Part shown: positions 2,976 through 17,746 of the stretch, in pieces
Numbering within the stretch: the stretch's first letter is position 1
Layout of the letters: every line of letters begins with the position of its first letter
Origin: a virus
Lineage: Duplodnaviria; Caudoviricetes
Length of the DNA stretch: 64,000 nt
Direction: 5' to 3' (one strand)
Virus record (IMG/VR): IMGVR_UViG_3300032218_003260
The notes under the pieces: model-generated
What the model was told of the DNA's origin: nothing
Database searches by the model: none
Seen by the model: only the letters and a program-made list of their open reading frames with translations
Translations under genes and position numbers: made by a program

Positions 2976-3518
2976 TCATTCCGCCATTGCTACAACGCGG
3001 CGTCGGTTTTTCTTTTCGGTCAACGTTGCCGGTTCAACGTGTTCGAGTTGTGACCCCGGAATTAGTGCGGCCATGTGGCGCAGAAACGTCTGCTCGAACT
3101 CGTCTTTAGTCAGGTCAGAGTAGGTGCCCATGCTACCTTTGTGATACACCATCTCGCCTCGGTAGAGCAGCTTTCCTTCTTTGGTCATTCTGCATTTCCA
3201 CGAGCACAAACAACCAGACCGCCGATTCCACACTTCAAGCCCGACTATGACGTCTTCTTTTCTGACGTATTTGCCGCACTTACCGACCGGGATTTCTAGC
3301 TCTTCGAGATCCTGATCGTAGTGCGGGACAATGATATCTTTGGCGCTGTCCCAAACCGCTGGGATACATGTGTCCATAAAAGCCGCGTGCTGCCGGGCGA
3401 GCTGGTCGTCTTTCTTTTTTTCTTTAGCTATCAGCTCATCGCAAATTTTTCTTTGCTGAGCCACGATCAAGCCTAAAAGCTCATGGTTTTGTTGTTCCAC
3501 TTTTGTCCTCAATGACAT
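2976..3518 (-). CDS. hypothetical protein (N-terminal coiled coil)
   Basis: Start re-called at MSLRTKVEQQ. Confidence 0.65.
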   Translation of the reverse strand: MSLRTKVEQQNHELLGLIVAQQRKICDELIAKEKKKDDQLARQHAAFMDTCIPAVWDSAKDIIVPHYDQDLEELEIPVGKCGKYVRKEDVIVGLEVWNRRSGCLCSWKCRMTKEGKLLYRGEMVYHKGSMGTYSDLTKDEFEQTFLRHMAALIPGSQLEHVEPATLTEKKNRRRVVAMAE

Positions 3519-3750
3519 CCCAGCCAATGTGCCCGAATACTCTTTTGGTGGCGCGAAAATCGTCACCGTCATCGAGTCCCGGCACTATCAGTACAAGGGT
3601 TTTGTTTTTCTTATCAATACGAAACGTGGTGCCTGATCTAGGGATTCCCCACACCGCGTCTTGTGCCGCCGCGGCCACAAGACTGCGGCACCACATCAGC
3701 ACTGACTCGGACGGATTATCTAGTTCAAAATTGTTATTGAGCGCTACCAT
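3481..3750 (-). CDS. hypothetical protein
   Basis: 89-aa ORF overlapping both neighbours. Confidence 0.6.
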   Translation of the reverse strand: MVALNNNFELDNPSESVLMWCRSLVAAAAQDAVWGIPRSGTTFRIDKKNKTLVLIVPGLDDGDDFRATKRVFGHIGWDVIEDKSGTTKP

Positions 3751-4937: not shown

Positions 4938-5561
4938 TCAGTCCCAAACGCGGATGACGGTGTTGTCCCGTGCAACCGTACGCTGGTATGTGATCCTGTA
5001 TGTGCCCGGCGGCAACAGCCAGTCGCCGTGTTCCGGGTGCGCGATCGTATTGGCTTTGGTCAGCCGGAGAATCGGGCCGGCAAACGCAAGCATGGCGATG
5101 GCGTCTTGCGCCGTTACTCTGTTCGACGGCGCGTTGGGGTTGTCGCGCCGCTCAGCCCACTCGGCTTCTTGCAGACGCGGCCGCCAGTTCGGCTCCGCCA
5201 CGGAGATCCCGCGCATCTCGGCAAGTTGCACAAACATCTCGCGCGAACCAGCCTCAACCGGGCTGTAAACAGTGACGCCGTCTCCGTGAGCCAGACAGTG
5301 TCGGCTACCCTTGGTGTTACCCTCGGCAAGCTGAAGCGGAAATACCGGCTGCAGCGTGCGGGTGTAGAGCAGCGGCGTCTCCGAAACGTCATCAATCTTT
5401 TGAATGTAAATATCGCCCTGTCGAACAGCATCGCCGACGCTGGCCGCTTCGGGAAACTGCTGCGGGGCGTCATTCTTAATCTGCTCAACAGCCGCGGCGG
5501 CGGCACGAAGCCGAGCCACCGTGGCATGCGAAACCGGCGCGTCAATAACAGCTGTACTCAT
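4938..5561 (-). CDS. RQGD...HxEH protein, partner of DUF6745
   Basis: RQGDIYI, LAEGNTKGSRH, IAHPEHGDWLLPPGTYRITYQR; AAGGA RBS before MSTAVID. Confidence 0.7.
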   Translation of the reverse strand: MSTAVIDAPVSHATVARLRAAAAAVEQIKNDAPQQFPEAASVGDAVRQGDIYIQKIDDVSETPLLYTRTLQPVFPLQLAEGNTKGSRHCLAHGDGVTVYSPVEAGSREMFVQLAEMRGISVAEPNWRPRLQEAEWAERRDNPNAPSNRVTAQDAIAMLAFAGPILRLTKANTIAHPEHGDWLLPPGTYRITYQRTVARDNTVIRVWD

Positions 5562-5583
5562 GAAAAATTCCTTTGTGTTTGAT

Positions 5584-7014
5584 TTACGATGCACCAATGA
5601 CTCGAACCGGACTGGCAGCATACGAAACACGCGAAGTGGTTCCTGCGTCTGCCATCCAACCCTGCGCTTCAACGCAGGTGCTAATATCTCGCGGCACGCT
5701 GATGAAATACCGCCGCCCAGTAGAACGGCAGAACAACACCATCCGGTTTTGACCGGTTCTGTTTTCTTGTCCGCGCGGCGGACCAACCAGCATCTCGGTC
5801 GTGTTATCAATATCGTTAACACGGCTATCAAGAACTGGGCAGTCTGCCTCTGCAATAAAGCGATCCCAGCCGAAACGCTCGATGGCCAGCCGGCGTGTTT
5901 CCTCGTTACGAATGCGCATGATGTGCGCCGTCGACAGTTGCTCCGGTTTTGCGACAATCATCCGGCCGCCTTCGTTCATGAAGTGCCCGTCGTTGAACCA
6001 TAGCTTTACGCCATCGGCCCACTGCACTGCCGGTCCGGTCGTGCTGTGCAAGTTGTTCGACTCGTTTAGCGTGATGCGCGGACGATCGGCAAGAATGATG
6101 CACGACGACTGGAACGCGGCAAACGCCGTGCAGTGGTGGAACACTTCGTGCTCCCACGTAGTCGCCGGGTCATCAATCTTTAGGATCTTGCACAGAATTT
6201 CGGCGTCAAGCGCCTGCGGCACGCTGCCCAGAAACACGTTGTCATCCGCAATTAAATTAGTTGGGTTGGTTAATTCGTTTATGGACATGGCGCGATTCAG
6301 CTCGCCAATTGACCCCGCGGTCGAGCTGCTGTCAAAAATGATCTTGTTGCTGATTTCAGACAGTTTCTTTTCAGTTTTTAACACTTCATTGTTGCGCATC
6401 GTCCCGTCCCAGCTACGAAAATTCTCTGTGATAGCTCCTAGGCCGACGGTGTCGTTGAGCATAGATCGAAAAAGATTGACTGTGGTGGTCAAGTTGTTTG
6501 TCTTGTACATGACAACATCTTCTACGCCTTCGCCGCGGCTGCGCCACCAACGACGATTTAACCCAAACGAAGTTGCTACGAGGCTTTCACTTGTCATGTA
6601 CTCTTCGCGAATTGCCCGCAACCACGTTCGAGTAAACTCGTTGTTTTGCATGTTGCTCCACCAACGCCGGCGATCGCTATTCCAGCCGAGCAACGAGTCT
6701 TTACGCAATGGGATAACAAACGCGCTGTCGATTTCAAGCTCGCGACACAGCTCTTTTGCGTATGTCTTTGTCATCCGTCCGCGCACCACCGCCATCGAAA
6801 TCATGAACGTCACCGGCGACGAGGCGACGTGAAAAGTTACAGGGCTTTTCTTGTGGCGGTCCGAGCGAAAAGAACCCAAACCACCGGCATAACCGGCGCG
6901 AAGTATTTCCGCAGCTTTAGCTTGGCTGGGTTGACCGTTGTGAATAGTTTCAAGCCAGCGATTGATCGTGTTTTCAACAATGGTTCGAGTTGCTTTGGAG
7001 ATCTTAGATTTCAT
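5584..7014 (-). CDS. DUF6745-like domain protein
   Basis: C-terminus LHSTTGPAVQWADG...IRNEETRRLAIERFGWDRF...CRSTGRRYFISVP...CVEAQGW. Confidence 0.7.
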   Translation of the reverse strand: MKSKISKATRTIVENTINRWLETIHNGQPSQAKAAEILRAGYAGGLGSFRSDRHKKSPVTFHVASSPVTFMISMAVVRGRMTKTYAKELCRELEIDSAFVIPLRKDSLLGWNSDRRRWWSNMQNNEFTRTWLRAIREEYMTSESLVATSFGLNRRWWRSRGEGVEDVVMYKTNNLTTTVNLFRSMLNDTVGLGAITENFRSWDGTMRNNEVLKTEKKLSEISNKIIFDSSSTAGSIGELNRAMSINELTNPTNLIADDNVFLGSVPQALDAEILCKILKIDDPATTWEHEVFHHCTAFAAFQSSCIILADRPRITLNESNNLHSTTGPAVQWADGVKLWFNDGHFMNEGGRMIVAKPEQLSTAHIMRIRNEETRRLAIERFGWDRFIAEADCPVLDSRVNDIDNTTEMLVGPPRGQENRTGQNRMVLFCRSTGRRYFISVPRDISTCVEAQGWMADAGTTSRVSYAASPVRVIGAS

Positions 7015-7015
7015 G

Positions 7016-7471
7016 TTAGGTAGTGGTTGCCATGATTGGGTCAACAAACCCGCAGTTTAGCGTGCTGTCTGTCAGCACAATTTCAAGTGTTTCAAAGTGA
7101 TCGCAGTTCTGTACCCAGCTGCGCGGAATGTTAATTACTTCCGCAAAATCATCGCCGCCAACTAGTTCGCGGCTATTGTCGTACCATTCGTCGTCGGTAT
7201 TTGGGTTGCAGTGTTCGGCGTAAACAACGTGTGCGCCGCTAGCGACACCCTCGACATCTCGCGGAATACCGTTGCTCATGAGATATACGCCGCGATCGTG
7301 TACAAATACCAAGCCGGGGCCCGCGGGCGTTCGCGTTTCCGGCGGCTCTAACCCAAGCTCGCGAAACTGCTCGTCCGTCATGTTCTCGTGACCCATATCA
7401 AACTGCGTCGAGGCGTATGCGTGCTCAAGGCACCTCTTTAACTCCGCAGCTTTAAACCGTAACACTGGCAT
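7016..7471 (-). CDS. DUF3085-like protein
   Basis: LVFVHDRGVYLMSNG...YAEHCNP...GGDDFAEVI. Confidence 0.75.
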   Translation of the reverse strand: MPVLRFKAAELKRCLEHAYASTQFDMGHENMTDEQFRELGLEPPETRTPAGPGLVFVHDRGVYLMSNGIPRDVEGVASGAHVVYAEHCNPNTDDEWYDNSRELVGGDDFAEVINIPRSWVQNCDHFETLEIVLTDSTLNCGFVDPIMATTT

Positions 7472-7826
7472 CGTGTAGCTCCTTCTCTAAGTTTTTACCT
7501 CTCCCAAACATCCACGAGTCGCCCTCTTCTGGTTGAATGCGGCGCAGCCAATCGGCAACGCTGGGGATGCGACCAAGGTCTTCATTGACGTGCTGCTCGC
7601 CGATATACCGTACCGGCACAACCCGCCCGTCAGAATTCGTGATTACTTTTCCGAAGATTCGTTCTGATAAGAAAATACCTTCGGAGTGGTGCCGCAGCGC
7701 GCGGTGGCGAAAGTCTGCCATGTGCGCTTTGGATCCATCAAACCATTCGTGGATAGCGAGATAATCGTCAACCTCGCCGCCCCACTTGCGCACTGACGAC
7801 AGCGCGTGATGGTACGGATGTGCCAT
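7452..7826 (-). CDS. DUF6915-like protein
   Basis: MAHPYHHALSS...HRALRHHSEGIF...GEQHVNEDLGRIPSVADWL. Confidence 0.75.
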   Translation of the reverse strand: MAHPYHHALSSVRKWGGEVDDYLAIHEWFDGSKAHMADFRHRALRHHSEGIFLSERIFGKVITNSDGRVVPVRYIGEQHVNEDLGRIPSVADWLRRIQPEEGDSWMFGRGKNLEKELHDASVTV

Positions 7827-8035
7827 TAGTCTCCCGTGTACAAGTCGAGCACGGAGGTTAGATCGCTGTGCGTAGCTGACCAGTCCATTTTGTCTTCGGC
7901 TATTTCAGCCGAGCGTTCCCAGTCGGCGTCGTCGGGTCTGCCAAACATGTCAGCGCTCCACCAAGCCAGAATGATGCTTTTGACGCCGTTCTTTTTTGCT
8001 CGTTTCAAATTGTCGATCGCTTCGTCGATAGTCAT
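7826..8035 (-). CDS. hypothetical protein
   Basis: 69 aa; TAATG and ATGA coupling. Confidence 0.65.
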   Translation of the reverse strand: MTIDEAIDNLKRAKKNGVKSIILAWWSADMFGRPDDADWERSAEIAEDKMDWSATHSDLTSVLDLYTGD

Positions 8036-8325
8036 GCTAGCGGTTTCACTGTTGGTTCGGTTGCGCCTTCTGCAAACTCTATGTCTGCTTCGCCGCGCAT
8101 CACTTGTTTAATGATGTTGACGTCGTTGAGCGCCCGTTCAATCCACGGCTGCATGCGCAAGATAAGCGGATCGTCAGCCGGCCGCTTTGCCTTATACATC
8201 AGCATCATCGACATACCCACGACCACCATTTCGAGCGGCGGACAATCAGCGGCCCAGTCGGCGGTATACGTGATTGGCGCCATCACCTCTTTAACGTCTT
8301 CTTCTGTCCATTTGTCAGCGGTCAT
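8032..8325 (-). CDS. hypothetical protein
   Basis: 97-aa coupled ORF. Confidence 0.65.
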   Translation of the reverse strand: MTADKWTEEDVKEVMAPITYTADWAADCPPLEMVVVGMSMMLMYKAKRPADDPLILRMQPWIERALNDVNIIKQVMRGEADIEFAEGATEPTVKPLA

Positions 8326-8329
8326 TTAG

Positions 8330-8773
8330 TCACCACTCGTTTTGCGTCGTGTTTGTTTCCATGATGCGCTCGTTGTGCTGATGCTTGATCTTGCCTTTGA
8401 GCGTATCGATTTCAATTTCGCCAAAACTGCCTTCGTTAATCTCCCATCCGCCCGGAAGAAGATCCCAAAGCGTTTCAGAAAACTCCGCAAGCTTTTCGAG
8501 CGAAATAATGGGCTTGGCGTCAGTGCCGGTTGGCGTTGCGTACTGCCGCTTGAACTCTTCAAAATAAACTCTGCGGCCGTTTGTCGACGACTCCATAGCT
8601 TCGCTGTCGTGCTGCGCTACGGGGTCGCAGAACCAGAAACAGAGTTCTTGAAAGTCCCCGGAATCGCCGCTGCCGTCATACGAGGCAACTATCCCTGTAA
8701 CGCCAAGCGCATTAAACAGCGGGCAGATTTCTTTAAGCGTTTCAATTGGCGTTTTGATTTTAGTTTTTGCCAT
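8330..8773 (-). CDS. DUF6878-like protein
   Basis: LGVTGIVASYDGSGDSG...GWEINEGSFGEI...HNER; start re-called at MAKTKIK. Confidence 0.7.
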   Translation of the reverse strand: MAKTKIKTPIETLKEICPLFNALGVTGIVASYDGSGDSGDFQELCFWFCDPVAQHDSEAMESSTNGRRVYFEEFKRQYATPTGTDAKPIISLEKLAEFSETLWDLLPGGWEINEGSFGEIEIDTLKGKIKHQHNERIMETNTTQNEW

Positions 8774-8774
8774 G

Positions 8775-9278
8775 TTAATAAGACGCGTATACCGTACAAG
8801 GTTTACCGGTTTTCTTTTCTTTCTCTTCAGCAAGCGTGACAAAATTTTGAAACGACTCAACCACGCGGTCCGCAAGGTCTGACTGTTCGCCGTATAGACG
8901 CGCTTGCCGTTCACGTACAGCCTCTTCGACCGTCATTGGTCTGGTTGTGTCGCTTCTGATGTTTCCGCCTTCCGCAACCTCGGCGCCAGTTGATTGCACC
9001 ATATCCAAAAACATTGCAGCGAGCTTGTGCCCGTCGCCGGTCATTGCTGGTTCTGTAACACGCGTTAGCCGTTCGCGCATAACAGCGGCAGGAATCTGCG
9101 CCCGGCAATCGTCAGCCTCGAACGCTTCGCGAACAAGGATTCGCGTGGCATACGGGCCGCCGTGGTACGCTTCGCGCAGATAACCGACGTGACCGGACGT
9201 GGTAGAAAAACCAGTGGCCTGCGCGCTCTTTTCCTCTTCTTCCATCCCGTCCCATTCCAGATAGATATCAATACCCAT
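8775..9278 (-). CDS. conserved hypothetical protein
   Basis: MGIDIYLEW...GYLREAYHGGPYATR...CTVYASY. Confidence 0.7.
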   Translation of the reverse strand: MGIDIYLEWDGMEEEEKSAQATGFSTTSGHVGYLREAYHGGPYATRILVREAFEADDCRAQIPAAVMRERLTRVTEPAMTGDGHKLAAMFLDMVQSTGAEVAEGGNIRSDTTRPMTVEEAVRERQARLYGEQSDLADRVVESFQNFVTLAEEKEKKTGKPCTVYASY

Positions 9279-9284
9279 CGTTGT

Positions 9285-9503
9285 TCACTGCTCCTTTAAA
9301 GCTACGAGCATGTCATCTTTAGCCGCGGTTTGAGTTTCAACTGCGCGTGTAGTGGTTTTATTCGTGCGCACGAACTGTCTTGCGTTCGGTGGAAAATCAG
9401 AATCCCACGTGACCGCTTTTTCTTCAGCTGCTTTTTCGTTGTCAGCCTCGATTACAAACGTTTCTGTTTGGGTGGTAGAAGTTTGAACGTGAAAATAGGG
9501 CAT
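9285..9503 (-). CDS. hypothetical protein
   Basis: 72-aa ORF; F-x-IEA-x-x-E-x-x-AEEKA pattern. Confidence 0.6.
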   Translation of the reverse strand: MPYFHVQTSTTQTETFVIEADNEKAAEEKAVTWDSDFPPNARQFVRTNKTTTRAVETQTAAKDDMLVALKEQ

Positions 9504-9532
9504 TTTTATTCCGTTTAGAGGTGGTTAAATGA

Positions 9533-9566
9533 GGAGGGCGCCGGGGCCGAAACCCCGACGCCCTCC
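9533..9566 (-). terminator. 14-bp GC-rich hairpin with UUCG loop, likely terminator/processing site
   Basis: GGAGGGCGUCGGGG-UUUCGG-CCCCGGCGCCCUCC on minus; G.U wobble on minus versus C.A mismatch on plus. Confidence 0.65.
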
Positions 9567-9600
9567 ATGGCGTCAAAAGTAGTTACCTAGATACGATAGT

Positions 9601-9933
9601 TCAGCGGCAGCCGCAGCTGCTGCAACCACCGCGACAGGCGCGGCCGGCCCGAACAACGCGCACCGGAGCGGCGACGACCGCCACCGGAACCTCGACGACG
9701 GCGCGGGTTACCGTGCGGGTCTTCTCGATCGTCCGGCCGAACAGACCGGCGCGGCACGAACCGCGGCACGAGCTTTCCGTGCGACAGGTACCGTTAGCAC
9801 ACGCGGGAGTGGCGTCAGCCACAACCACCGGCGCAGCGGGCTGCACCAGCACGCTCTTCGGTTCACCGGCATCGCCAGCAAACGCAACGGACGAAACAAA
9901 CGCAAGGACCACAGCTGCAAAACAAGACTTCAT
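9601..9933 (-). CDS. secreted Cys/Arg-rich small protein
   Basis: Signal peptide MKSCFAAVVLAFVSSVAFA; 8 Cys in the mature part; AAGGAG RBS. Confidence 0.75.
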   Translation of the reverse strand: MKSCFAAVVLAFVSSVAFAGDAGEPKSVLVQPAAPVVVADATPACANGTCRTESSCRGSCRAGLFGRTIEKTRTVTRAVVEVPVAVVAAPVRVVRAGRACRGGCSSCGCR

Positions 9934-10077
9934 GTCAATCTCCTTGAACTACCGAACAAATACTACCGCACGCGCGGCAATAACCTGCTCAGCAATACTC
10001 TTTGTATAGCGGAGCAGGATTTTGTTGCAACCCCAAAATCAAAAACAGATTCTGGGGAATCTTGTCAAAATGCGTAA

Positions 10078-10347
10078 TTATTCACGCACTACGTGAACGT
10101 TGTACCAGCGCATTTTATCGTTGAGCCACTTGGCCTCGGCGGCGAGTGCGTCTGCGCGCGACTCAAAGTTACGCAAAGACGGCCCGCCGACTGGCGATAA
10201 ATCAGCAACCCACTCTCCCGGAATTGTCGGGTCAGGCTCAACGTGACTGGCACGTTTGATATCAAGCTCTCCCAGCGCTTTTAGGTTGATCTCTTCGCCA
10301 TAGAGACATTGCGCTGAGCCGTTGGGGCGAATGTATAGCTGCATCAT
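10078..10347 (-). CDS. conserved small protein (RASHVEP...ADLSPVGGP family)
   Basis: Motif recalled from planctomycete genes beside DUF1257/DUF2997/AAA clusters. Confidence 0.7.
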   Translation of the reverse strand: MMQLYIRPNGSAQCLYGEEINLKALGELDIKRASHVEPDPTIPGEWVADLSPVGGPSLRNFESRADALAAEAKWLNDKMRWYNVHVVRE

Positions 10348-10348
10348 G

Positions 10349-11350
10349 CTACATCGACATCAGACGTCGAGAGGGTATTAGCTCGTTCATGTTAACCGCT
10401 CGCGGCAACTGCGCCACGGCTGCAGGCGTATACAGGTTTTGTCGTCGCCGCTCAGACCTTGACACGTTGTACACATTAAATTGCGTAATATTGTCAATGA
10501 TTGCTCCCGCAAACAACGCGTCGTCGTGCACGTCTTCGCGTGGGTAGGTTTGCGACTGGCCATCATACGTGGGGCGGAAAATGATATGACCGCCGGCTGC
10601 AACAGCATGGCCGCGAAACGCTAACAGGGCGTTGATTTGTTCGACGTTTGCAATGATGGCGTAGTCAACAACTTTTAAACGCGACCGTTCAAACGTCGGG
10701 TCGTTCTGCTCACGCGAGTAGATCGTGACTTGCATCAGTTTGCTGCCTACGACCTGCGCTTTCCCGGCAATAGTGACAAAGCCGCGAAGCACAGAACTGC
10801 TGATTTGCGCCTCGCCGCCGACGTATGCCTGACCTTCGAGTGACGTTTGAATTGCAATCGCTTTTCCCGAAATACCGCAGTTCCCGCGTAACGTGCAACT
10901 GATAACGCGGGCGCTGTCTCTGATAAACGCGTTTTCGTACGCAGTTGTCGAGCCAGAAACAATACCGCCGTATACGCGAGCTTCGTTTGAGAACTGACAG
11001 TCGTCCATTACTCGGGCCCGGCCGCTGACGCTCGCAAACTGGCTCAGTTTTACGTTTCCGCTGACGTGCGCGTACCCGCAGATCTGGGCCCGATTATGCA
11101 CGCGTACGTTGCCCTCGACACGGGCGTTGTGATACACCTGCGCCAGCTTGTAAACAAAAACCGAATCGGCCACTTTTGCGGTATCTGCTACCCAGCCCTC
11201 GCCGTTAACGTGTCGATGTGCAAACACGCGGCCGTTACCGTCTTTGAAATCATGCTTTGATGCCCGCTTCTTTTTTGGTTTGACCGCGGTCATCACCGCT
11301 GCCGCCGCATCTAGCACGGCGACAGCGCTGTCTTTTTGTTCCTCCATCAC
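10349..11350 (-). CDS. left-handed beta-helix (hexapeptide repeat) protein
   Basis: Repeats such as ARVEGN, AQICGY, AHVSGN, ASVSGR, ARVYGG; N-terminal HRHVNGEGWVADTA. Confidence 0.7.
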   Translation of the reverse strand: MMEEQKDSAVAVLDAAAAVMTAVKPKKKRASKHDFKDGNGRVFAHRHVNGEGWVADTAKVADSVFVYKLAQVYHNARVEGNVRVHNRAQICGYAHVSGNVKLSQFASVSGRARVMDDCQFSNEARVYGGIVSGSTTAYENAFIRDSARVISCTLRGNCGISGKAIAIQTSLEGQAYVGGEAQISSSVLRGFVTIAGKAQVVGSKLMQVTIYSREQNDPTFERSRLKVVDYAIIANVEQINALLAFRGHAVAAGGHIIFRPTYDGQSQTYPREDVHDDALFAGAIIDNITQFNVYNVSRSERRRQNLYTPAAVAQLPRAVNMNELIPSRRLMSM

Positions 11351-12294
11351 GACTCCATCGGAAGGACACGCCGTCTGGGCGCGTTTGTGATCAGACTGTC
11401 GAGCGCGGTTTTAACCTCGCCCATCTGCTGGGTCAGGTTCTGCCGCAAGTTGTTGTTCTTGCGCAGGTCCTTCACGTCGACACCTGAAACAATGTCAGTA
11501 GCGCGCTGGATTAAAGTATCAAGCTGCGCATTTGAGCGAATATTCATTTGCCGGAAGTTGTCATAGAACTCTTTGAAGTTTTCGATCGCAGAGTTTTGAA
11601 ATTTCTTTTTCGTACCGTCAGGCTCGTCGGTCAGCCGCTCGATCAGGTGCGCGATCATGTCCTGCAGCTGCTCGGCAAACGCGTTTTCAGCCATGACTAC
11701 CGCCGTCTCAAACCGGTGCTGGACGCGTTGCTGCTCCTGCTGGTACAGCTCGGGATTGAACGTCATGAGATAGTTCGGCGGATCAACCGGCGGGTACTCC
11801 CACCGAAGGTCAAACACGCCTTCCAGCGACGGCGGATAGTCGTTGGGGTTGTACAGCTCGCCCAGCTTTTCGCGGGCGGCAACCTTGAGAGTTTCGTACT
11901 CTAGCTGCAGGTTTGCGGCAGCCACTACCAGCTGTTCTTTGTATTCGCGCATCCTGTCTTCAAACGCGCCGATGTCGGCTTGTTTGATGAGGCGCACACC
12001 TTCCTGCGGATACGGTAGCGTCATAGAGCGCCAGTACGCCGACGCCTGACTCTTGAGCGTGGTTAGCACGCGATATGTTGTGTTCTTTGTATCGATAAGG
12101 CGCTTGGACGCTGTGACCAGATCGGTGGCGGCATGAAACGTATCAGCGGCTTGCTTGGTCTGCGCATCAGATAGCTTGCGCTGCGTCCCTAACCACGAGA
12201 ACGACAGCTTGACGGCGCCCATCGTCTGGCGCAAGTCGCTAGCTGTCTGCTCGACTGTCGTGTTTTCTTCGGTCGTTGTGTCGGTTGTGGACAT
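11347..12294 (-). CDS. DUF3150-like helical protein
   Basis: 315 aa, helical; TLPYPQEGVRLI, YPPSLEGVFDLRWEY, NSAIENFKEFYDNF. Confidence 0.55.
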   Translation of the reverse strand: MSTTDTTTEENTTVEQTASDLRQTMGAVKLSFSWLGTQRKLSDAQTKQAADTFHAATDLVTASKRLIDTKNTTYRVLTTLKSQASAYWRSMTLPYPQEGVRLIKQADIGAFEDRMREYKEQLVVAAANLQLEYETLKVAAREKLGELYNPNDYPPSLEGVFDLRWEYPPVDPPNYLMTFNPELYQQEQQRVQHRFETAVVMAENAFAEQLQDMIAHLIERLTDEPDGTKKKFQNSAIENFKEFYDNFRQMNIRSNAQLDTLIQRATDIVSGVDVKDLRKNNNLRQNLTQQMGEVKTALDSLITNAPRRRVLPMES

Positions 12295-12894
12295 TCAGTC
12301 TCCTTCTTCGTCTGTGTCAAGTTCTTCTTCAATTGTTTGCTCCACCCACTCGTCGATTGCAAACGCTTGTACAAGTCTCTTTGGTAATTTTTCTAGTTCG
12401 GCCAGATTGTCGGGTACGCTAAACTCTTGAATGTCACCATTGCGGTAAATGCCGCAAAAACCTACGCCCGGCTCAAAGCAATAGGCTGTGATATCAAAAC
12501 CTGCAACAACGCGCAGGTGGTCAAAGAACTGAATTGGCGGTGACCAAGCTGAATCGAAAACGAGTGTGATGTGTTTGGATTTTGACGGCACGCGCTTTGG
12601 CGTTTGATCTGTTTCGCGCCCTACGTCCCACTTTGTTCCCCAATGACCAACCTGCCACTCGTACCAGTTTTTTGCTCCGTACAGCTCAACGTTTTGGCGT
12701 TCTTGCGCTTCTAACGCCAATTGTGCGGCTGACCCATCTGAGCCAGCGCAACCAGCGACAGTCGCTTTCAATTCTTCTGGGCACGGCAGAAATGTGCTCA
12801 TGAGACAACCACTGTTCCATGCGCGCACCAACTTGTGCAACTGCTCCGGGTCGTTGTGTTTAAACGTAACTTTGTTGGCGCACCAGTTAGGCAT
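12295..12894 (-). CDS. DUF1281/YubB ferredoxin-like domain protein
   Basis: MPNWCAN...NWYEWQVGHWGTKWD...FDSAWSPP...FEPGVGFCG. Confidence 0.75.
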   Translation of the reverse strand: MPNWCANKVTFKHNDPEQLHKLVRAWNSGCLMSTFLPCPEELKATVAGCAGSDGSAAQLALEAQERQNVELYGAKNWYEWQVGHWGTKWDVGRETDQTPKRVPSKSKHITLVFDSAWSPPIQFFDHLRVVAGFDITAYCFEPGVGFCGIYRNGDIQEFSVPDNLAELEKLPKRLVQAFAIDEWVEQTIEEELDTDEEGD

Positions 12895-12910
12895 TGCGTT
12901 GGCTTGCAAT

Positions 12911-12946
12911 CCGCAGCTGCGGGGCAGTGATGCCCCGCAGCCGCAG
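12911..12946 (-). terminator. ~16-bp intergenic hairpin after the AAA ATPase gene
   Basis: CUGCGGCUGCGGGGCA-UCAC-UGCCCCGCAGCUGCGG with G.U pairs only on minus; no U-tract. Confidence 0.6.
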
Positions 12947-12958
12947 TATTGCTAGCAC

Positions 12959-14443
12959 TTAGCCCTTGGCGGGCGCCGCGACACGGCGCGGTCGCTGCGT
13001 TGTAACAGCCGGCTTACCAACACGCGTGTAAATACCGCGGTTGTCAGCCGACAGGCAGCGACCTTCAGCCCAGCCGCGCAGCCGCTCAATCTGCTCAGCC
13101 GACGTCACGGAGATCGGTACCACGTTCTGCGCCGCTTCAACAAGCGGGATATCAAGCAGCGCCGCGAGACGGCAGCACGACTTGATCTCGGCGCCCGTCC
13201 AGTTGGCGTCGTCCGGCTTTTCCTGCGACTCATCTACGCCGAAATGCTTCAGGTAGATATCCCAGATCGCCGCGCGCTGGTCAGCGCCGGGCAGATCCAC
13301 GAAGAAGATACCGTCGAAGCGCTCGGCGCGGGCAAACGGCGCCGGCAGCTGGCTGGCGTCGTTGCAGGTACCGATGAAGAACACATCGGACGTGTGGTCG
13401 TTGAGCCACGTCAGCAGCGTGCCGAACAGGCGAGCTGAGACACCGGAATCGGTCTGACCAGAGCTTCCGACGCCGGCAAGACCCTTCTCGATCTCGTCGA
13501 CGAACAGAACGCACGGGGCCATGGCGTCGACCTGCTTGAGCGCACGCCGCATGTTACCCTCGGACTCGCCCACGAACTTACCCATGAGCGAACCGAAATC
13601 CAGCATTACGGTCGGACGACCGACCTCGTTGCCAAGTGCTTTGGCAAACTGCGACTTGCCGCAGCCCGGAGGCGACAGCAGTAGCACGCCCTTGGGGCGT
13701 TTTTCTACGTTGGTTTCGCCCTGACGCCGCATGGCGCGCAGGCAGAAACTCTTTAGGTTTTCGAGACCACCAAGGTTCTCGAAGTTTGCGTCACCGCGAT
13801 ACAGCGTCATCGTCCCGCTCTTTTCGAGCGTCTGGGCTTTGATACCCCAGATCGTATCAGGCGACAGCTTATTATTGCGCACCAGCGACAGCGCGAAGGC
13901 GTTCTCGGCCTCCTGCCGCGTCAGGCCACGTGAGGCGTCGACGACAGCAGCTACGTCCTGCTCGGCCGGCTTGGCGAACGGAGAGCCGTCCGGGAACAGC
14001 TCGTTGCAGACCGTGGTCAGCTGCGGGAGATCCGGCAGCTCGTGATGCACTACCGTGAACAGCTTCTCAACCTCGGGTTGCAGCTGCAGCACCGGCGCCA
14101 CGATAATGATATGTTTACCTTCGCCCTTACCCTGCACCACACGGTTAGCCAGAGCCTGCAGCACCTCGGGGTTACCAAGGAAGCGATGAAAATTCTTCAG
14201 AACGAGCAGCATCGGCTGCTTGGGCTGCGGCTGGTCGAGAAACCGCAACGCCTGAAGCGGGCCGGGAGCCGGAGCGGCACCCGAATACAGCTGGCGGTCG
14301 ATGTCCCACACATCAAAACCCCAGTCCTTTTCTTCAGTTACGCGGCGAATCGACGCAATCGCGTCATCGCACTCCTGTGATTCAATCCAGATGCCGGAGA
14401 AGCCGGCGCAAACCAGCTCCTTAATTTCTTTTTCGAGCGACAC
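12959..14443 (-). CDS. Ycf46/SpoVK-like AAA+ ATPase
   Basis: Walker A SPPGCGKS, Walker B VLFVDEIEK, SRH TCND..LPAPFARAERFD; N-terminal degenerate AAA-like domain; GTG start. Confidence 0.9.
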   Translation of the reverse strand: MSLEKEIKELVCAGFSGIWIESQECDDAIASIRRVTEEKDWGFDVWDIDRQLYSGAAPAPGPLQALRFLDQPQPKQPMLLVLKNFHRFLGNPEVLQALANRVVQGKGEGKHIIIVAPVLQLQPEVEKLFTVVHHELPDLPQLTTVCNELFPDGSPFAKPAEQDVAAVVDASRGLTRQEAENAFALSLVRNNKLSPDTIWGIKAQTLEKSGTMTLYRGDANFENLGGLENLKSFCLRAMRRQGETNVEKRPKGVLLLSPPGCGKSQFAKALGNEVGRPTVMLDFGSLMGKFVGESEGNMRRALKQVDAMAPCVLFVDEIEKGLAGVGSSGQTDSGVSARLFGTLLTWLNDHTSDVFFIGTCNDASQLPAPFARAERFDGIFFVDLPGADQRAAIWDIYLKHFGVDESQEKPDDANWTGAEIKSCCRLAALLDIPLVEAAQNVVPISVTSAEQIERLRGWAEGRCLSADNRGIYTRVGKPAVTTQRPRRVAAPAKG

Positions 14444-14482
14444 GTGTGACCTTTGTTTTTGTTTTGTAAGAACTTGCTATTG

Positions 14483-14674
14483 TCAGTTGCTTTCCGTAAT
14501 CTGCTCGTCATTACTGGCAATGTAAAAATCGCCGGTAAGCTGCTCGTCCACCTTTGCGCCCAACGCCTGTTCCAGCGCTCGCGTCGCGTCCTGACAAGAG
14601 CTGCCGGTAAAACCGAAAGTTTCGATCTTGGTGCCGCCCTTCGGGTCGACAACGATATGAATGGTCTTCGACAT
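14483..14674 (-). CDS. DUF2997 family protein
   Basis: IHIVVDPKGGTKIETFGFTGSSCQDATRALEQALG. Confidence 0.8.
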   Translation of the reverse strand: MSKTIHIVVDPKGGTKIETFGFTGSSCQDATRALEQALGAKVDEQLTGDFYIASNDEQITESN

Positions 14675-14676
14675 GT

Positions 14677-15042
14677 TTAGAAACCTCCCGTCAGGCTGAG
14701 TTTGACCGAACCGTCCGGCAGCATCTCCTCGAACACCGAGTAGCCGCCCTTCTGAGCTTCGTAGATCGCCTTTTCGACCGCGTACGCCTGCAGGAACCTG
14801 TCCAACTCTTCCTGCCTACCCCACGCGCCGTTGTAGTTATCGTACGCCGCGGCGCCGGTTTCCGTATTGAACACGGCCGGGTACTGCCAGCCCGGGAGCT
14901 TCACAGCCAGTCCATCGGCACTCTGGCCGGCGAACAGCACATGATGCCCGGCCTTTGGGGCCTCAAACCCGAGACGCTTGCAGGCCGCTTCAACCGCGGC
15001 AGCGTCTTTTACTTCCGTCTTGATCTGAACAATGTGAGACAT
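14677..15042 (-). CDS. DUF1257 (Ycf35-like) family protein
   Basis: MSHIVQIKTEVKDAAAVEAACKRLG...QAYAVEKAIYEAQKGGYSV.E...DGSVKLSL. Confidence 0.8.
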   Translation of the reverse strand: MSHIVQIKTEVKDAAAVEAACKRLGFEAPKAGHHVLFAGQSADGLAVKLPGWQYPAVFNTETGAAAYDNYNGAWGRQEELDRFLQAYAVEKAIYEAQKGGYSVFEEMLPDGSVKLSLTGGF

Positions 15043-15066
15043 GCTTAGCCTCTTCTGTCCTTTGCT

Positions 15067-15366
15067 TTAAGGTAGTTCTTGAAGTGCACACACAACTGTG
15101 TTTTCAAATTGTTCCGGCGAGATGTAATCATTGCCGGCAAAATATTCCAATACAGCAACCGCAATTTTGCGATTGTAAACGTATTTAAACTGTAGCGGAC
15201 CGCGCGGCGTATCTAAGCGATATTCCGTGATATCGTGTAACGACACGACTTCTGGAATTGCGATAACGTCGCTGTATTTTTTTCGTAACTCATTAAGCTC
15301 GTCGAGCGCCGTCAGAATGCGTTCGCGATCTTCGTCAAAACAATCTTCATTGTCGTAGGGCGTCAT
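15067..15366 (-). CDS. hypothetical protein
   Basis: 99-aa ORF, lower-GC codon style than its neighbours. Confidence 0.65.
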   Translation of the reverse strand: MTPYDNEDCFDEDRERILTALDELNELRKKYSDVIAIPEVVSLHDITEYRLDTPRGPLQFKYVYNRKIAVAVLEYFAGNDYISPEQFENTVVCALQELP

Positions 15367-15671
15367 CGGTACGCGATGATCTCTGCTTTAGTCTCTATCC
15401 AAACATGCGCGCCGCACGAGAGTGGCGCGTCTGGGGAGTACACAACCTGCGATTCGCCGCGGACGTCGACGTGTTTTGCCGCGTACGTTTTGTTGCGCCA
15501 CTTGATCGTCAGTGGCGGCACGCGCAGGTTTTGTTTTTTGTTATCGCGGATAATGTGCTGGTTAACGTGTATACGTTTAATCGTCCCAGCGGGCATTGTC
15601 ATTTCATCGGCGTCCCCCGGGAAACGCAGCGGAATACGGGGCTCCAACAGGCAGACGTCTTCTGTCGCCAT
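15363..15671 (-). CDS. conserved phage hypothetical protein
   Basis: IHVNQHIIR...VVYSPDAPLSCGAHVWIET. Confidence 0.75.
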   Translation of the reverse strand: MATEDVCLLEPRIPLRFPGDADEMTMPAGTIKRIHVNQHIIRDNKKQNLRVPPLTIKWRNKTYAAKHVDVRGESQVVYSPDAPLSCGAHVWIETKAEIIAYR

Positions 15672-15682
15672 AGGTAAAGATA

Positions 15683-15733
15683 TTTATCGCGCGTCGGCAT
15701 GGTCGTCCGTGACCATCGCCGGGCGCGGATAAA
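15683..15733 (-). promoter_or_regulatory. ~20-bp imperfect hairpin with a CsrA/RsmA-type loop (UCACGGACGA)
   Basis: Loop region 15703-15712 matches (A/U)CANGGANG(U/A); hairpin base lies 11 nt upstream of ATG 15671. Confidence 0.5.
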
Positions 15734-15739
15734 AATAGC

Positions 15740-16591
15740 TTACGACGCAACTACCGAGCGCAACTTCTTGTGCTCAGCCAGAATGTTGCCGGCCATGTCG
15801 TAGCAACCGTCGCAAGCAGCCAGAAACGCCGTCGCAGCCTTGAGCTGATCCATCGGCAGCGTCGTCGAACCAGACGGCCCGCGCGCGACCGGCCGCTTCG
15901 GGGCGGCGCTCTTCGCCGGCTCTTCCTTCCGCTTGTGGCGCGCCGCGTCGCGGGTCCGCTCTTCGCCCGCAGCTACGGCCTCGCCGCGCTTTGCGGGAGC
16001 TACGCCTGCTTTCTTCAACAGCTGGCTCACTTGAGCCGGGCTGACTTCAACACGCTTCTTGGCGAGCGCCGCCACGATGTCAACACCGCGGAGCGAGTCA
16101 CCAGACTCCTGCCGACGCTCGATCTCCTCGCGGATGTGATCGGCGCCGCTTTTCTTCTCGGCCATATCTTTCACCTTCCCTTTTCTGGTCTTGGTCGCAT
16201 TGGGCGCCTCGACCGGGTCATCGTCTTCGTCGGCTTCCACAGTGGAGTCGACAGCTTCGTCCGAAACCTCGTCGCCGTCTTCCGGCTCATACTCGGTTTC
16301 GTCGTCTTCGTCGTCGGTCAGCTTCGCGGCCGTCGAGCGGACGTCTTCGCTGCCTTCGTCTTCGTAATCGGCTTCAGCGTATGCCGCTTCGTCGTCGACT
16401 GTGTCTTCTTCAAGCTCGGCGTCGACATTTGCGTCAACGTCTTCGTCGTCGTAATCTTCTGGTGTCGCGAACCGCATCCCTGTGGTTCCTTTCTCCTTCT
16501 TGTCTTTCTCTGCGGGTGCCTTGCTGGTTGCGCCCGGAAGTGGCTTTCCCCACAGATTTGCCGGACTCACAAACTCGTCAGCCTTGGCCAT
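15740..16591 (-). CDS. acidic disordered N-terminus fused to a basic, putative nucleoid-associated domain
   Basis: AGGAGAGG RBS; D/E-rich region, then SGADHIREEI...IVAALAKKRVEVSPAQVSQLLKK and LPMDQLKAATAFLAAC. Confidence 0.7.
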   Translation of the reverse strand: MAKADEFVSPANLWGKPLPGATSKAPAEKDKKEKGTTGMRFATPEDYDDEDVDANVDAELEEDTVDDEAAYAEADYEDEGSEDVRSTAAKLTDDEDDETEYEPEDGDEVSDEAVDSTVEADEDDDPVEAPNATKTRKGKVKDMAEKKSGADHIREEIERRQESGDSLRGVDIVAALAKKRVEVSPAQVSQLLKKAGVAPAKRGEAVAAGEERTRDAARHKRKEEPAKSAAPKRPVARGPSGSTTLPMDQLKAATAFLAACDGCYDMAGNILAEHKKLRSVVAS

Positions 16592-16699
16592 AGTGTCCTC
16601 TCCTAAAGCGCCGCCGGCCGAAACATTTCGGCCTCGTTGTGCGGCTAAATGAAAAATACACCACCGGAAACAAAAATCAACTATTGCAGAAAACAACCG

Positions 16700-17062
16700 T
16701 TATTTGCTGCTTCTGTAGTTGTCCGGCACGTTGCCATCTTTAGTGCGAAGTGCGCCGGCATTTAGCTCGGGCCACTTCTCTAGCGAGTGGATGGCGCCGA
16801 TGACATTCCATGCAGCGTGACCAAGATGGTCTTCACTGCGGTCGCCGTTCAAGAAATTGTAGATGTGCGCAATCGCGTGGTTTAGCAGGTCAGAGACGGG
16901 CATGCCGTTTTCCCAGTTGTACGGGCCAAACTTTTCAGCCCCTTCGTGGTAAGTCTGCGCTAGCGCGCGTAGACCAATCGGCGAAATTAGATCGTAGCGC
17001 ACGGCGTCGCAATCGGCGCTGCGTACGGCGCCAGTGTCGTACTCGTGGCGTTCGTTGCTCAT
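16700..17062 (-). CDS. dATP/dGTP diphosphohydrolase (DUF5664-like)
   Basis: RYDLISPIGLRALAQTYHEGAEKFGPYNWENG...HAIAH...EDHLGHAAWN. Confidence 0.85.
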   Translation of the reverse strand: MSNERHEYDTGAVRSADCDAVRYDLISPIGLRALAQTYHEGAEKFGPYNWENGMPVSDLLNHAIAHIYNFLNGDRSEDHLGHAAWNVIGAIHSLEKWPELNAGALRTKDGNVPDNYRSSK

Positions 17063-17370
17063 CAGAGATAACCTTCTTGTCGGAAAGCAAAGTAGAGCCG
17101 CGGTTCGTCGTTGAACGCGACTGTGCCGCGAACGCCGTCAGATTTTCGAATCACGTGCACGTAAGGCGGCTCAAAGTGCGACACCTCAAATGTGTCTAGC
17201 AATTGCTCGCTGTTCCAGACCTGCTCGCCATACTGCTCTTGCAGCACGGTACGAATCTCATCTGATCCGCGGCGGTCAAGCTGCTCTTTGATAACATTAC
17301 GCAACATCACGTGCCCGATATCGAGCGGTATCTGCGTTGCGAGTTCTTTAGCTTTGTGTGGTGTCGGCAT
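17062..17370 (-). CDS. conserved hypothetical protein (VIRKSDG..G...F...PRLYF family)
   Basis: YGEQVWNSEQLLDTFEVSHFEPPYVHVIRKSDGVRGTVAF; family recalled from planctomycete mobile regions. Confidence 0.65.
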   Translation of the reverse strand: MPTPHKAKELATQIPLDIGHVMLRNVIKEQLDRRGSDEIRTVLQEQYGEQVWNSEQLLDTFEVSHFEPPYVHVIRKSDGVRGTVAFNDEPRLYFAFRQEGYL

Positions 17371-17746
17371 TTGGTTGTGCAAGCTTGTCCAGTTCTTCTT
17401 TTTGTTGTTTGATTTGCTCTGCGACATGCGCCGCATACTGGTCAAGCATTCTAAGCTGGCCGACAAGATCTTTGTGCACGTCGACACTGAACAGCGAAAG
17501 CCGCCGCATGAGCATGAGCAAACTTGCGGTAAACGGTGGTTCTTTGCTGCGTAAGCTCAGCAGGCCGGGCGGAGCGTTTTCCGGCTGCGATGTCCACAGG
17601 GGAACAAGCGCAAGTCCGTGTAGTTCTGGAACAGCGGCCATTACTTCGTTACAAAACTCTTCGCCGCGTCGCATAAATTCGACGTCAAACGGTAAGCGGC
17701 CAGATTGAATTTCAGATTGCTGATCAGGTTGCTGCGGCGTATCCAT
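17348..17746 (-). CDS. hypothetical protein, C-terminal coiled coil
   Basis: 132-aa ORF; AAAGGA RBS. Confidence 0.7.
   Translation of the reverse strand: MDTPQQPDQQSEIQSGRLPFDVEFMRRGEEFCNEVMAAVPELHGLALVPLWTSQPENAPPGLLSLRSKEPPFTASLLMLMRRLSLFSVDVHKDLVGQLRMLDQYAAHVAEQIKQQKEELDKLAQPNADTTQS

Follow-up and report, generated by a model that had tools for sequence, protein, structure and literature searches.

Introduction

The closest described relatives of the genes treated here come from cyanobacteria and plastids. Red-lineage algae carry ycf46 and ycf35 in their plastids (PMC5940233), a DUF2997-ycf35-fed7 neighbourhood is found in cyanobacteria (PMC4284462), and Ycf46 has been described as an ATPase that is induced by stress, interacts with KaiC and influences both circadian timing and carbon concentration (PMC13683863). 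What appear to be the same three families, Ycf46, Ycf35 (DUF1257) and DUF2997, form a triad in the viral DNA analysed here, a stretch of 64,000 nucleotides (nt) taken from the 76.6-kb IMG/VR virus record IMGVR_UViG_3300032218_003260 (Duplodnaviria; Caudoviricetes), whose complete relatives measure about 198-205 kb. We refer to this stretch as the window and use its positions throughout. The triad lies between positions 10078 and 15042, together with a DUF3150 protein, a protein of 89 amino acids (aa) that we call p89, and two further genes. An earlier note, made from the letters alone, had proposed that this region is an undescribed module.

We find in this region a core of five genes that stay linked across unrelated elements, an AAA+ ATPase (ATPases associated with diverse cellular activities) with intact catalytic motifs, and a C-terminal tail that is conserved and that co-varies between the ATPase and its neighbours. 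These observations suggest that the gene products work as a single machine of several proteins, centred on a classical AAA+ unfoldase or segregase of the hexameric type, whose partners or clients would be addressed by their tails, a reading in which we place about even confidence.

Results

Seven packed genes and a five-gene core

Positions 10078-15042 hold seven co-oriented, tightly packed minus-strand open reading frames (ORFs); the gaps between them measure 2, 39, 49, 0 and 1 nt, and one pair overlaps by 4 nt. All seven are those of the earlier note, at the coordinates it had given, and they are listed here with the RNA hairpin that lies among them:

14677-15042, minus strand: DUF1257 (Ycf35)-like small protein, 121 aa; Pfam match below cut-off, phrog_20456, relatives
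14483-14674, minus strand: DUF2997 small protein, 63 aa; PF11211, 54.6 bits
12959-14443, minus strand: classical-clade AAA+ ATPase, probably two-tier, 494 aa; PF00004 E 1.7e-27, phrog_8638 E 2e-82
12901-12958 (approximate), minus strand: RNA hairpin; -47.8 kcal/mol, z -5.98
12295-12909, minus strand: Api92/DUF1281_C-like protein with an acidic C-terminus, 204 aa; DUF1281_C E 0.004, phrog_20518 E 8e-17
11347-12294, minus strand: protein assigned as divergent DUF3150, 315 aa; relatives match PF11348, AlphaFold DB model match
10349-11350, minus strand: left-handed beta-helix (YdcK/bactofilin-like) protein, 333 aa; weak Hexapep, bactofilin and YdcK matches, phrog_5070
10078-10347, minus strand: p89, 89 aa, unnamed family with an R-A-S-H-V-E-P motif; 12 invariant columns

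The DUF1257-like, DUF2997, AAA, Api92-like and beta-helix proteins match PHROGs families of unknown function. A promoter scan of 9500-17500 returned no sigma-70-like promoter, and no Rfam family was found in 7000-17000. The core consists of the DUF1257-like, DUF2997, AAA+ ATPase, DUF3150 and p89 genes. Of the other two, the Api92-like gene occurs in the closest relatives alone and the beta-helix gene only in the phage family; both are lineage-specific inserts outside the core. The gene set of the earlier note is real in each of its members, but only five of them make up the core, its DUF1281-like and beta-helix genes being restricted to particular lineages.

Linkage across phages, genomes and plasmids

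We compared 70 viral loci by tblastn and iterated hidden Markov model (HMM) searches. The entire block is colinear in the phage family, in which about 48 loci have the five core genes; taken alone, this is little proof. The 22 distant viral loci, with ATPase identities of 29-47%, carry DUF1257, DUF2997, DUF3150 and p89 around the ATPase in other orders. Among cultured phages, the Tunturiibacter phage Tunturi_3 has all five core genes, Rhizobium phage L338C has the triad and a p89-like protein recognised by eye (with no DUF3150 in the stretch read), and cluster O mycobacteriophages have the ATPase only.

A further 80 loci come from species-representative genomes, mostly metagenome-assembled genomes of Planctomycetota, and show the order DUF1257, DUF2997, ATPase, a variable insert of 1.5-8 kb, DUF3150, p89. 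Planctomycetota genomes often hold several copies, in one case two copies 15 kb apart on a single contig. On plasmids, the ATPase was found at the level of the whole domain in 671 records, 571 of them conjugative. A plasmid of Candidatus Manganitrophus carries all five core genes; the Thermovibrio and Geminocystis plasmids carry the triad with no detectable DUF3150; and an IncC plasmid carries the ATPase, DUF1257, DUF2997 and a p89-like protein (E 1.4e-4), again with no detectable DUF3150. The IncC proteins of 310 and 394 aa were considered as DUF3150 candidates and found to be unsupported. HMM searches and gene neighbourhoods thus show that the linkage on which the earlier note had staked its module is kept outside the phage lineage, in distant phages, Planctomycetota islands (the planctomycete occurrence that it had mentioned is real) and plasmids.

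These distributions bear on how large the unit is. It might be that only the triad of AAA ATPase, DUF1257 and DUF2997 belongs together, as in cyanobacteria, and that DUF3150, p89, the beta-helix protein and the others are passengers of a variable region. The triad-bearing loci just described that are without a detectable DUF3150 (the IncC, Thermovibrio and Geminocystis plasmids and the L338C stretch), the solitary ATPase of the cluster O mycobacteriophages and the size of the inserts between the ATPase and DUF3150 genes in cellular copies would all fit such an arrangement. Yet in most loci, at ATPase identities of 29-57% and in any gene order, the DUF3150 gene lies no more than 8 kb from the ATPase gene, and the tails of the two proteins co-vary, as described below. 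Moreover, the IncC version that lacks DUF3150 keeps the sharing of tails with other proteins, which speaks for a partner slot open to exchange more than for neighbours brought together by chance. We consider the triad-only arrangement improbable.

A C-terminal tail shared by the ATPase and its neighbours

A feature that is new here is a C-terminal tail of the PRRR-V-x-x-M type which, judged by sequence, is common to three products of the module (ATPase, DUF3150 and beta-helix proteins) and to a 198-aa protein whose gene lies 7 kb away. The fourth protein is:

2976-3572, minus strand: 198-aa tail-bearing protein of no known family, ending in NRRRVVAMAE; tail score 13.8

The window tails of the other three are RPRRVAAPAKG (ATPase), APRRRVLPMES (DUF3150) and IPSRRLMSM (beta-helix). 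Across the phage family, the DUF3150 tail reads A-P-R-R-R-V-[LM]-P-M-E, the beta-helix tail P-x-R-R-[LI]-M-S-M or R-R-I-M-R-M-E-E, and the ATPase tail R-P-R-R-V-A-A-P or G-R-R-K-I-A-A-P. R308, which lies in the tail, is the sole invariant column of the DUF3150 alignment, and the tail is disordered in the predicted structure of that protein.

The tails were searched for with a matrix built from DUF3150 tails, with 1,935 internal control windows as the null (99.9th percentile, 6.7). The beta-helix tail scored 21.2 and ranked second among the 151 window ORFs, and it scored 14.5 and again ranked second, right after DUF3150, among the 441 ORFs of at least 100 aa in a complete relative (G001). The tail of the 198-aa protein, which is kept in relatives, ranked third in both sets, the next ORF of the complete relative scoring 7.0. 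A recent duplication of the DUF3150 gene end as the source of the beta-helix tail was rejected, since the two coding ends have no nucleotide similarity.

The tails also change together. Paired DUF3150 and beta-helix tails from individual phages read RRRLQRLDD and RRLLRLEE, SRRIVPM and GRRIVPV, or RRRIMSME and TRRIMSTD, while the ATPase and DUF3150 proteins of distant loci end in GRKLDI and KRAIDF, KRNINV and RRKINF, or KRRVVR and RRRVVR, and those of Planctomycetota in RRVVRE and RRNILRR. ATPase and DUF3150 tails from the same locus scored 14.75, against 12.64 for tails from different loci (none of 5,000 shuffles reached the observed value, p about 2e-4, with the loci treated as independent of one another), and the likeness between same-locus DUF3150 and beta-helix tails gave p 0.003 in a permutation test. 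Control tails, those of p89, DUF1257 and DUF2997, scored about 7 and showed no same-locus effect.

The same design appears with other partners. On IncC the ATPase ends in GRKLAIED, and two unrelated neighbours, of 394 aa (with a signal-peptide-like start) and 187 aa, both end in KRKIILD. Looser matches, judged by eye, occur in Tunturi_3, in the cluster O mycobacteriophage Dylan (ATPase gp95) and on the Thermovibrio plasmid, and a Thermogutta locus has an additional tail-bearing ORF between its ATPase and DUF3150 genes. We also considered p89 as the universal receptor of the tail and rejected it, since distant viral loci with tails lack a p89-like motif.

Tails of this kind might instead be read by a host factor, for example as C-terminal degradation tags for ClpXP or as a motif bound by a host hub protein. 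The host would then set the timing or location of the ATPase and its partners alike, and the tails would be uninformative about the choice of partner. ClpX tags are known to include basic-hydrophobic C-termini such as the RRKKAI type of MuA, co-variation would also be expected if both tails adapted to the same host protein, and the cassette offers no universal receptor candidate of its own. However, only three ORFs of at least 100 aa in the complete relative are clearly tail-bearing, and two of these lie in the cassette. Furthermore, the design recurs in Enterobacteria, Planctomycetota and Acidobacteriota (the latter two as inferred or recorded hosts), always in an ATPase and its neighbours, and a receptor carried along with the cassette would account more readily for such recurrence across distant hosts. 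A host reader of the tail is, in our judgement, unlikely, and we retain the view that the tail would be read within the machine itself.

An ATPase with one intact and one putative degenerate tier

The predicted layout of the ATPase comprises a degenerate AAA-like module (residues 1-215) and an active AAA module (residues ~245-470). The PF00004 match spans positions 1-130 of the 131 in the model. Motifs were examined in an alignment of 28 diverse relatives, with identities down to 28%. The Walker A motif, P-P-G-C-G-K-S at residues 258-264, has invariant G260, G262 and K263; the Walker B residues D316 and E317 are at least 90% conserved; the arginine fingers R372 and R375 of the second region of homology are invariant; and pore loop 1, K-F-V-G-E-S-E, has V291 conserved to at least 90% and G292 and E295 invariant. 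The intact Walker motifs and arginine fingers described in the earlier note are therefore conserved well beyond this phage. Among solved structures, the D2 domains of Cdc48/p97 come closest to the active domain (E 5e-44), and in a test against the CDC48 family (TIGR01243) the protein scored 85.7 bits against a cut-off of 802.65, the D2 region alone matching. ATPases adjoining DUF1257 and DUF2997 on cyanobacterial plasmids are 31-32% identical to it over residues 1-466.

The earlier note had also read the N-terminal part as a degenerate AAA-like domain. An hhalign comparison of the N and C halves (E 1.6e-4, probability 50%) places the sequence NFH opposite the DE of Walker B and keeps the strand-plus-lid region in register, and the N-domain profile weakly matches RFC5. 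These weak profile matches lend some support to a two-tier ATPase with a dead first tier.

In six related phages the ATPase gene is split directly after the Walker B aspartate by a group I intron (Rfam RF00028, 68.6 bits, E 7e-17). The inserts, at L042:6939-7721 and in loci L043, L045, L046, L047 and L056, measure 0.8-1.4 kb and contain in-frame stops, and the alternative of an intein was rejected on account of these stops and the Rfam match; the window's own ATPase gene is uninterrupted by an intron. Group I introns usually occupy conserved, expressed phage genes, and their position at the Walker B codon of six ATPase genes fits a gene of that kind.

The hairpin that the earlier note had seen was recovered directly 3' of the ATPase stop codon, with no U-tract after it. 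At a rounded z of -6.0 it is more stable than any of 200 shuffles, and it matched no Rfam family. It may mark the insertion junction of the Api92-like gene or be a site of RNA processing or stability.

The ATPase matches the PADLOC model of IetA (E 7e-16) and the NCBIfam model of IteA (E 2e-14). Such matches, along with the type I restriction-modification system and transposases found near planctomycete copies, raise the question of whether the cassette is an anti-phage defence or superinfection exclusion system of the IetAS kind that resides on mobile elements. The matches are, however, confined to the generic AAA domain (residues ~250-425), the IetA family model NF042959 giving 53.5 bits against a cut-off of 510; neither an IetS-type protease nor any other PADLOC component was found among the neighbours; and the cassette is conserved in lytic-type jumbo phage genomes and in the IncC backbone. 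We regard a defence function as highly improbable.

Small and helical partner proteins

The 121-aa DUF1257-like protein scores below the Pfam cut-off for PF06868 (Ycf35; 17.7 bits versus 22.2, E 0.004), and a relative retrieved with jackhmmer (L072:7572-7967) matches DUF1257 with 56.2 bits (E 4.4e-15). Linked through its relatives in this way to bona fide DUF1257, the protein is a candidate member of that family. M1, S2, H3, D68, Y87 and G100 are invariant in the alignment. All DUF1257-like proteins start with M-S-H. Once the methionine is removed, the chain would begin with a free Ser-His, a feature suggestive of a metal site or of an N-terminus with a catalytic role. The DUF2997 protein matches PF11211 over the full model length and well above the cut-off of 24.1 bits, with G13, C27 and G39 invariant. 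Of the two small families named in the earlier note, DUF2997 is thus directly recognised and DUF1257 is tied in through its relatives. The DUF1281-like gene of that note is a weaker case, its product matching DUF1281_C (PF18406) with 17.5 bits against a cut-off of 22.8 and drawing its stronger support from phrog_20518.

No family in Pfam, PHROGs or PADLOC matched the 315-aa and 89-aa proteins, and in NCBIfam the former had a chance-level match only and the latter none. Iterated searches were more informative for the 315-aa protein, for which 12 of 28 relatives match PF11348 (best E 1.3e-20). Its AlphaFold model (predicted local distance difference test score, pLDDT, 85.7) combines a small alpha/beta part with a long helical hairpin and a helical bundle, ends in the disordered tail, and matches AlphaFold DB entries of DUF3150 (E 1e-18, template modelling score 0.79). 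By these profile and model matches the protein is best classed as a divergent DUF3150, in keeping with the DUF3150-like helical protein of the earlier note. Foldseek searches of the PDB with the model returned nothing at E <= 0.001, and VIA-align found generic helical bundles only (Z up to 9.7). In Tunturi_3, gp96 (L004:7384-8343), recorded as an HNH endonuclease, is a DUF3150 homologue (iterated-search E 5.7e-79), and its recorded annotation looks wrong.

The beta-helix protein and the RASHVEP-containing p89 are likewise as the earlier note had described them. The p89 family counts 2,786 cluster representatives at E <= 0.001, and its invariant columns include R32, S34, V36, E37 and P38. In most copies the p89 gene follows the DUF3150 gene or the next tail-bearing gene. 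The p89 model (pLDDT 89.3) shows a weak likeness to HicB-N/dsRBD folds (Z 4.4) and otherwise resembles unnamed AlphaFold DB entries only. Homology of p89 to DUF2997 was considered and is unsupported, the alignment being limited to the first beta-hairpin. PDB sequence searches with the DUF1257, DUF3150 and Api92-like proteins gave nothing meaningful.

A metagenomic database protein, P0195 (327 aa), joins the C-terminal two thirds of DUF3150, a PRRK tail and a complete p89 domain in one frame; it represents either a natural fusion or a lost stop codon.

Accessory genes and genomic surroundings

Several genes that accompany the module elsewhere lie in the window outside 10078-15042, on its downstream side:

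8330-8914, minus strand: DUF6878 protein, accessory; Pfam E 1.2e-11
7452-7826, minus strand: DUF6915 protein, accessory; Pfam E 2.1e-48

Both families are frequent accessories of the module in cellular copies, with homologues in 22-24 of 83 cellular loci. In many planctomycete copies they stand between DUF2997 and the ATPase, as seen at two copies with called genes, one of which has a type I restriction-modification system and an IS110 transposase nearby. Beside the DUF6915 and DUF6878 genes, just downstream of the module, a DUF3085 gene occupies 7016-7471. Broad-host-range plasmids are reported to be enriched in DUF3085 more than in any other factor (PMC12826799). Further along, 5584-7047 encodes a 487-aa protein with a DUF6745 domain (E 2.6e-9) that overlaps a 339-aa ORF at 4938-5957.

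On the IncC plasmid pVC1447 (L208:9334-14669) the triad is followed by tail-bearing proteins with signal-peptide-like starts and then by TrbG/VirB9-, VirB10- and VirB11-like genes, and on the Thermovibrio plasmid (L206) an ATPase of the family shared by type II secretion systems, type IV pili and type IV secretion systems (T2SS/T4P/T4SS) lies nearby. A link between the module and an envelope apparatus is possible on these two plasmids.

Discussion

We infer that the products of this cassette form a complex with unfolding activity in which the tail acts as a docking signal. The motor would be the ATPase, whose N-terminal AAA-like tier would be inactive and whose C-terminal tier would do the work and present the F-V-G pore loop. 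The small DUF1257 and DUF2997 proteins probably work as a pair, and the DUF3150 protein would be paired with its small companion p89. The tail, here P-R-R-(R)-V/L-x-x-M, would serve as the docking or address motif for a single receptor site of the machine, such that tail-bearing proteins would be recruited as cofactors or clients and then remodelled at the expense of ATP, while the tail of the ATPase itself would be a competitor for this site and thereby contribute to self-regulation or ring assembly. Co-folding of the ATPase with DUF3150, both supplied as alignments, gave a score of 0.00, which counts neither for nor against binding.

As to the biological role, because its vehicles include phages, plasmids and integrated islands alike, the cassette most likely serves a general purpose of mobile DNA that enters or controls a cell, and not virion assembly. 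The nature of the carriers together with the neighbours DUF6878, DUF6915 and DUF3085 points in the same direction. A use early in infection, for host takeover or counter-defence, as the earlier note had proposed, remains a hypothesis.

Several considerations weigh against the tail-addressed machine. The permutation test behind the co-variation ignores the relatedness of the loci, and its effective sample is smaller than 64 pairs. The ATPase tail of the phage family fits only the basic half of the motif, with a score of 1.5, and tail scans are noisy in the G+C-rich DNA of planctomycetes, where spurious ORFs are rich in arginine. In addition, p89, DUF1257 and DUF2997 are not detectable in every tail-bearing distant locus, so that none of them is an obvious universal receptor, and the models of DUF3150 and p89 have no informative solved relative, which makes the roles assigned to these two proteins guesses.

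Within these bounds the cassette appears to be an AAA+ unfoldase with dedicated cofactors in a form that is undescribed, made up of five gene families and a shared tail motif. Full-text searches found no paper that describes it in the searchable literature, and to our knowledge the only function known among its members is the generic one of the ATPase. The module proposed in the earlier note accordingly holds as regards the co-occurrence of its genes, their planctomycete copies and their novelty, but in the reduced form of the five-gene core and not as the full set. The cassette is common, the p89 family alone comprising about 2,800 cluster representatives, and it is found in jumbo phages, in cultured phages and in the IncC backbone of multidrug-resistance plasmids. 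Through the cassette, three orphan families of cyanobacteria and plastids (Ycf46, Ycf35/DUF1257 and DUF2997) become connected with two more (DUF3150 and p89), and the shared, co-varying tail makes a cluster of unknown function directly testable for partner choice.

A broader idea, which we put forward tentatively and with well under even confidence, is that AAA+ ATPases of the Ycf46 type are widespread, undescribed tail-addressed remodelling machines, in which the arginine-hydrophobic tail of the motor has been copied onto exchangeable partners as an address label and which mobile elements use when establishing themselves in a cell. The partners would then be DUF3150, the beta-helix protein and the signal-peptide proteins of IncC. 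If true, the logic of the tail would also make sense of ycf46, ycf35 and DUF2997, which have long been orphan genes in cyanobacteria and plastids.

Comparison with known systems

The nearest point of reference remains the cyanobacterial and plastid set. The Geminocystis plasmid, on which DUF1257, DUF2997 and an AAA ATPase are linked, encodes an ATPase with 32% identity to residues 1-466 of the window protein. In cyanobacteria and plastids, however, Ycf46, Ycf35 and DUF2997 are chromosomal or plastid housekeeping or stress genes, unlike the mobile cassette studied here, and DUF3150, p89 and the sharing of tails are undescribed for them. IetAS has an AAA ATPase of the same broad clade, to which the phage protein shows weak matches, whereas the phage cassette lacks the IetS protease.

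In mechanism the machine would come closest to Cdc48/p97/VAT, which it resembles in its closest solved active domain and would resemble in having two stacked AAA tiers. Cofactors of p97 dock through short linear motifs, and the C-terminal tail of that ATPase is functional. Unlike Cdc48/p97, the first tier of the phage ATPase would be degenerate, without a Walker A motif and with NFH in place of DE; the protein, at 494 aa, has no double-psi-barrel N domain; and the putative cofactors come from families unrelated to those of Cdc48/p97.

The use of a short C-terminal peptide to set engagement or docking on an AAA+ ring is familiar from ClpX, which acts on ssrA and MuA tails, and from the HbYX tails of proteasomal ATPases, and MuA-type tags are basic-hydrophobic, as is the phage tail. 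The phage cassette, whose components are related neither to those of ClpX nor to those of p97, differs from these systems in having no protease partner and in that its motor and neighbours bear the same tail, co-varying by lineage.

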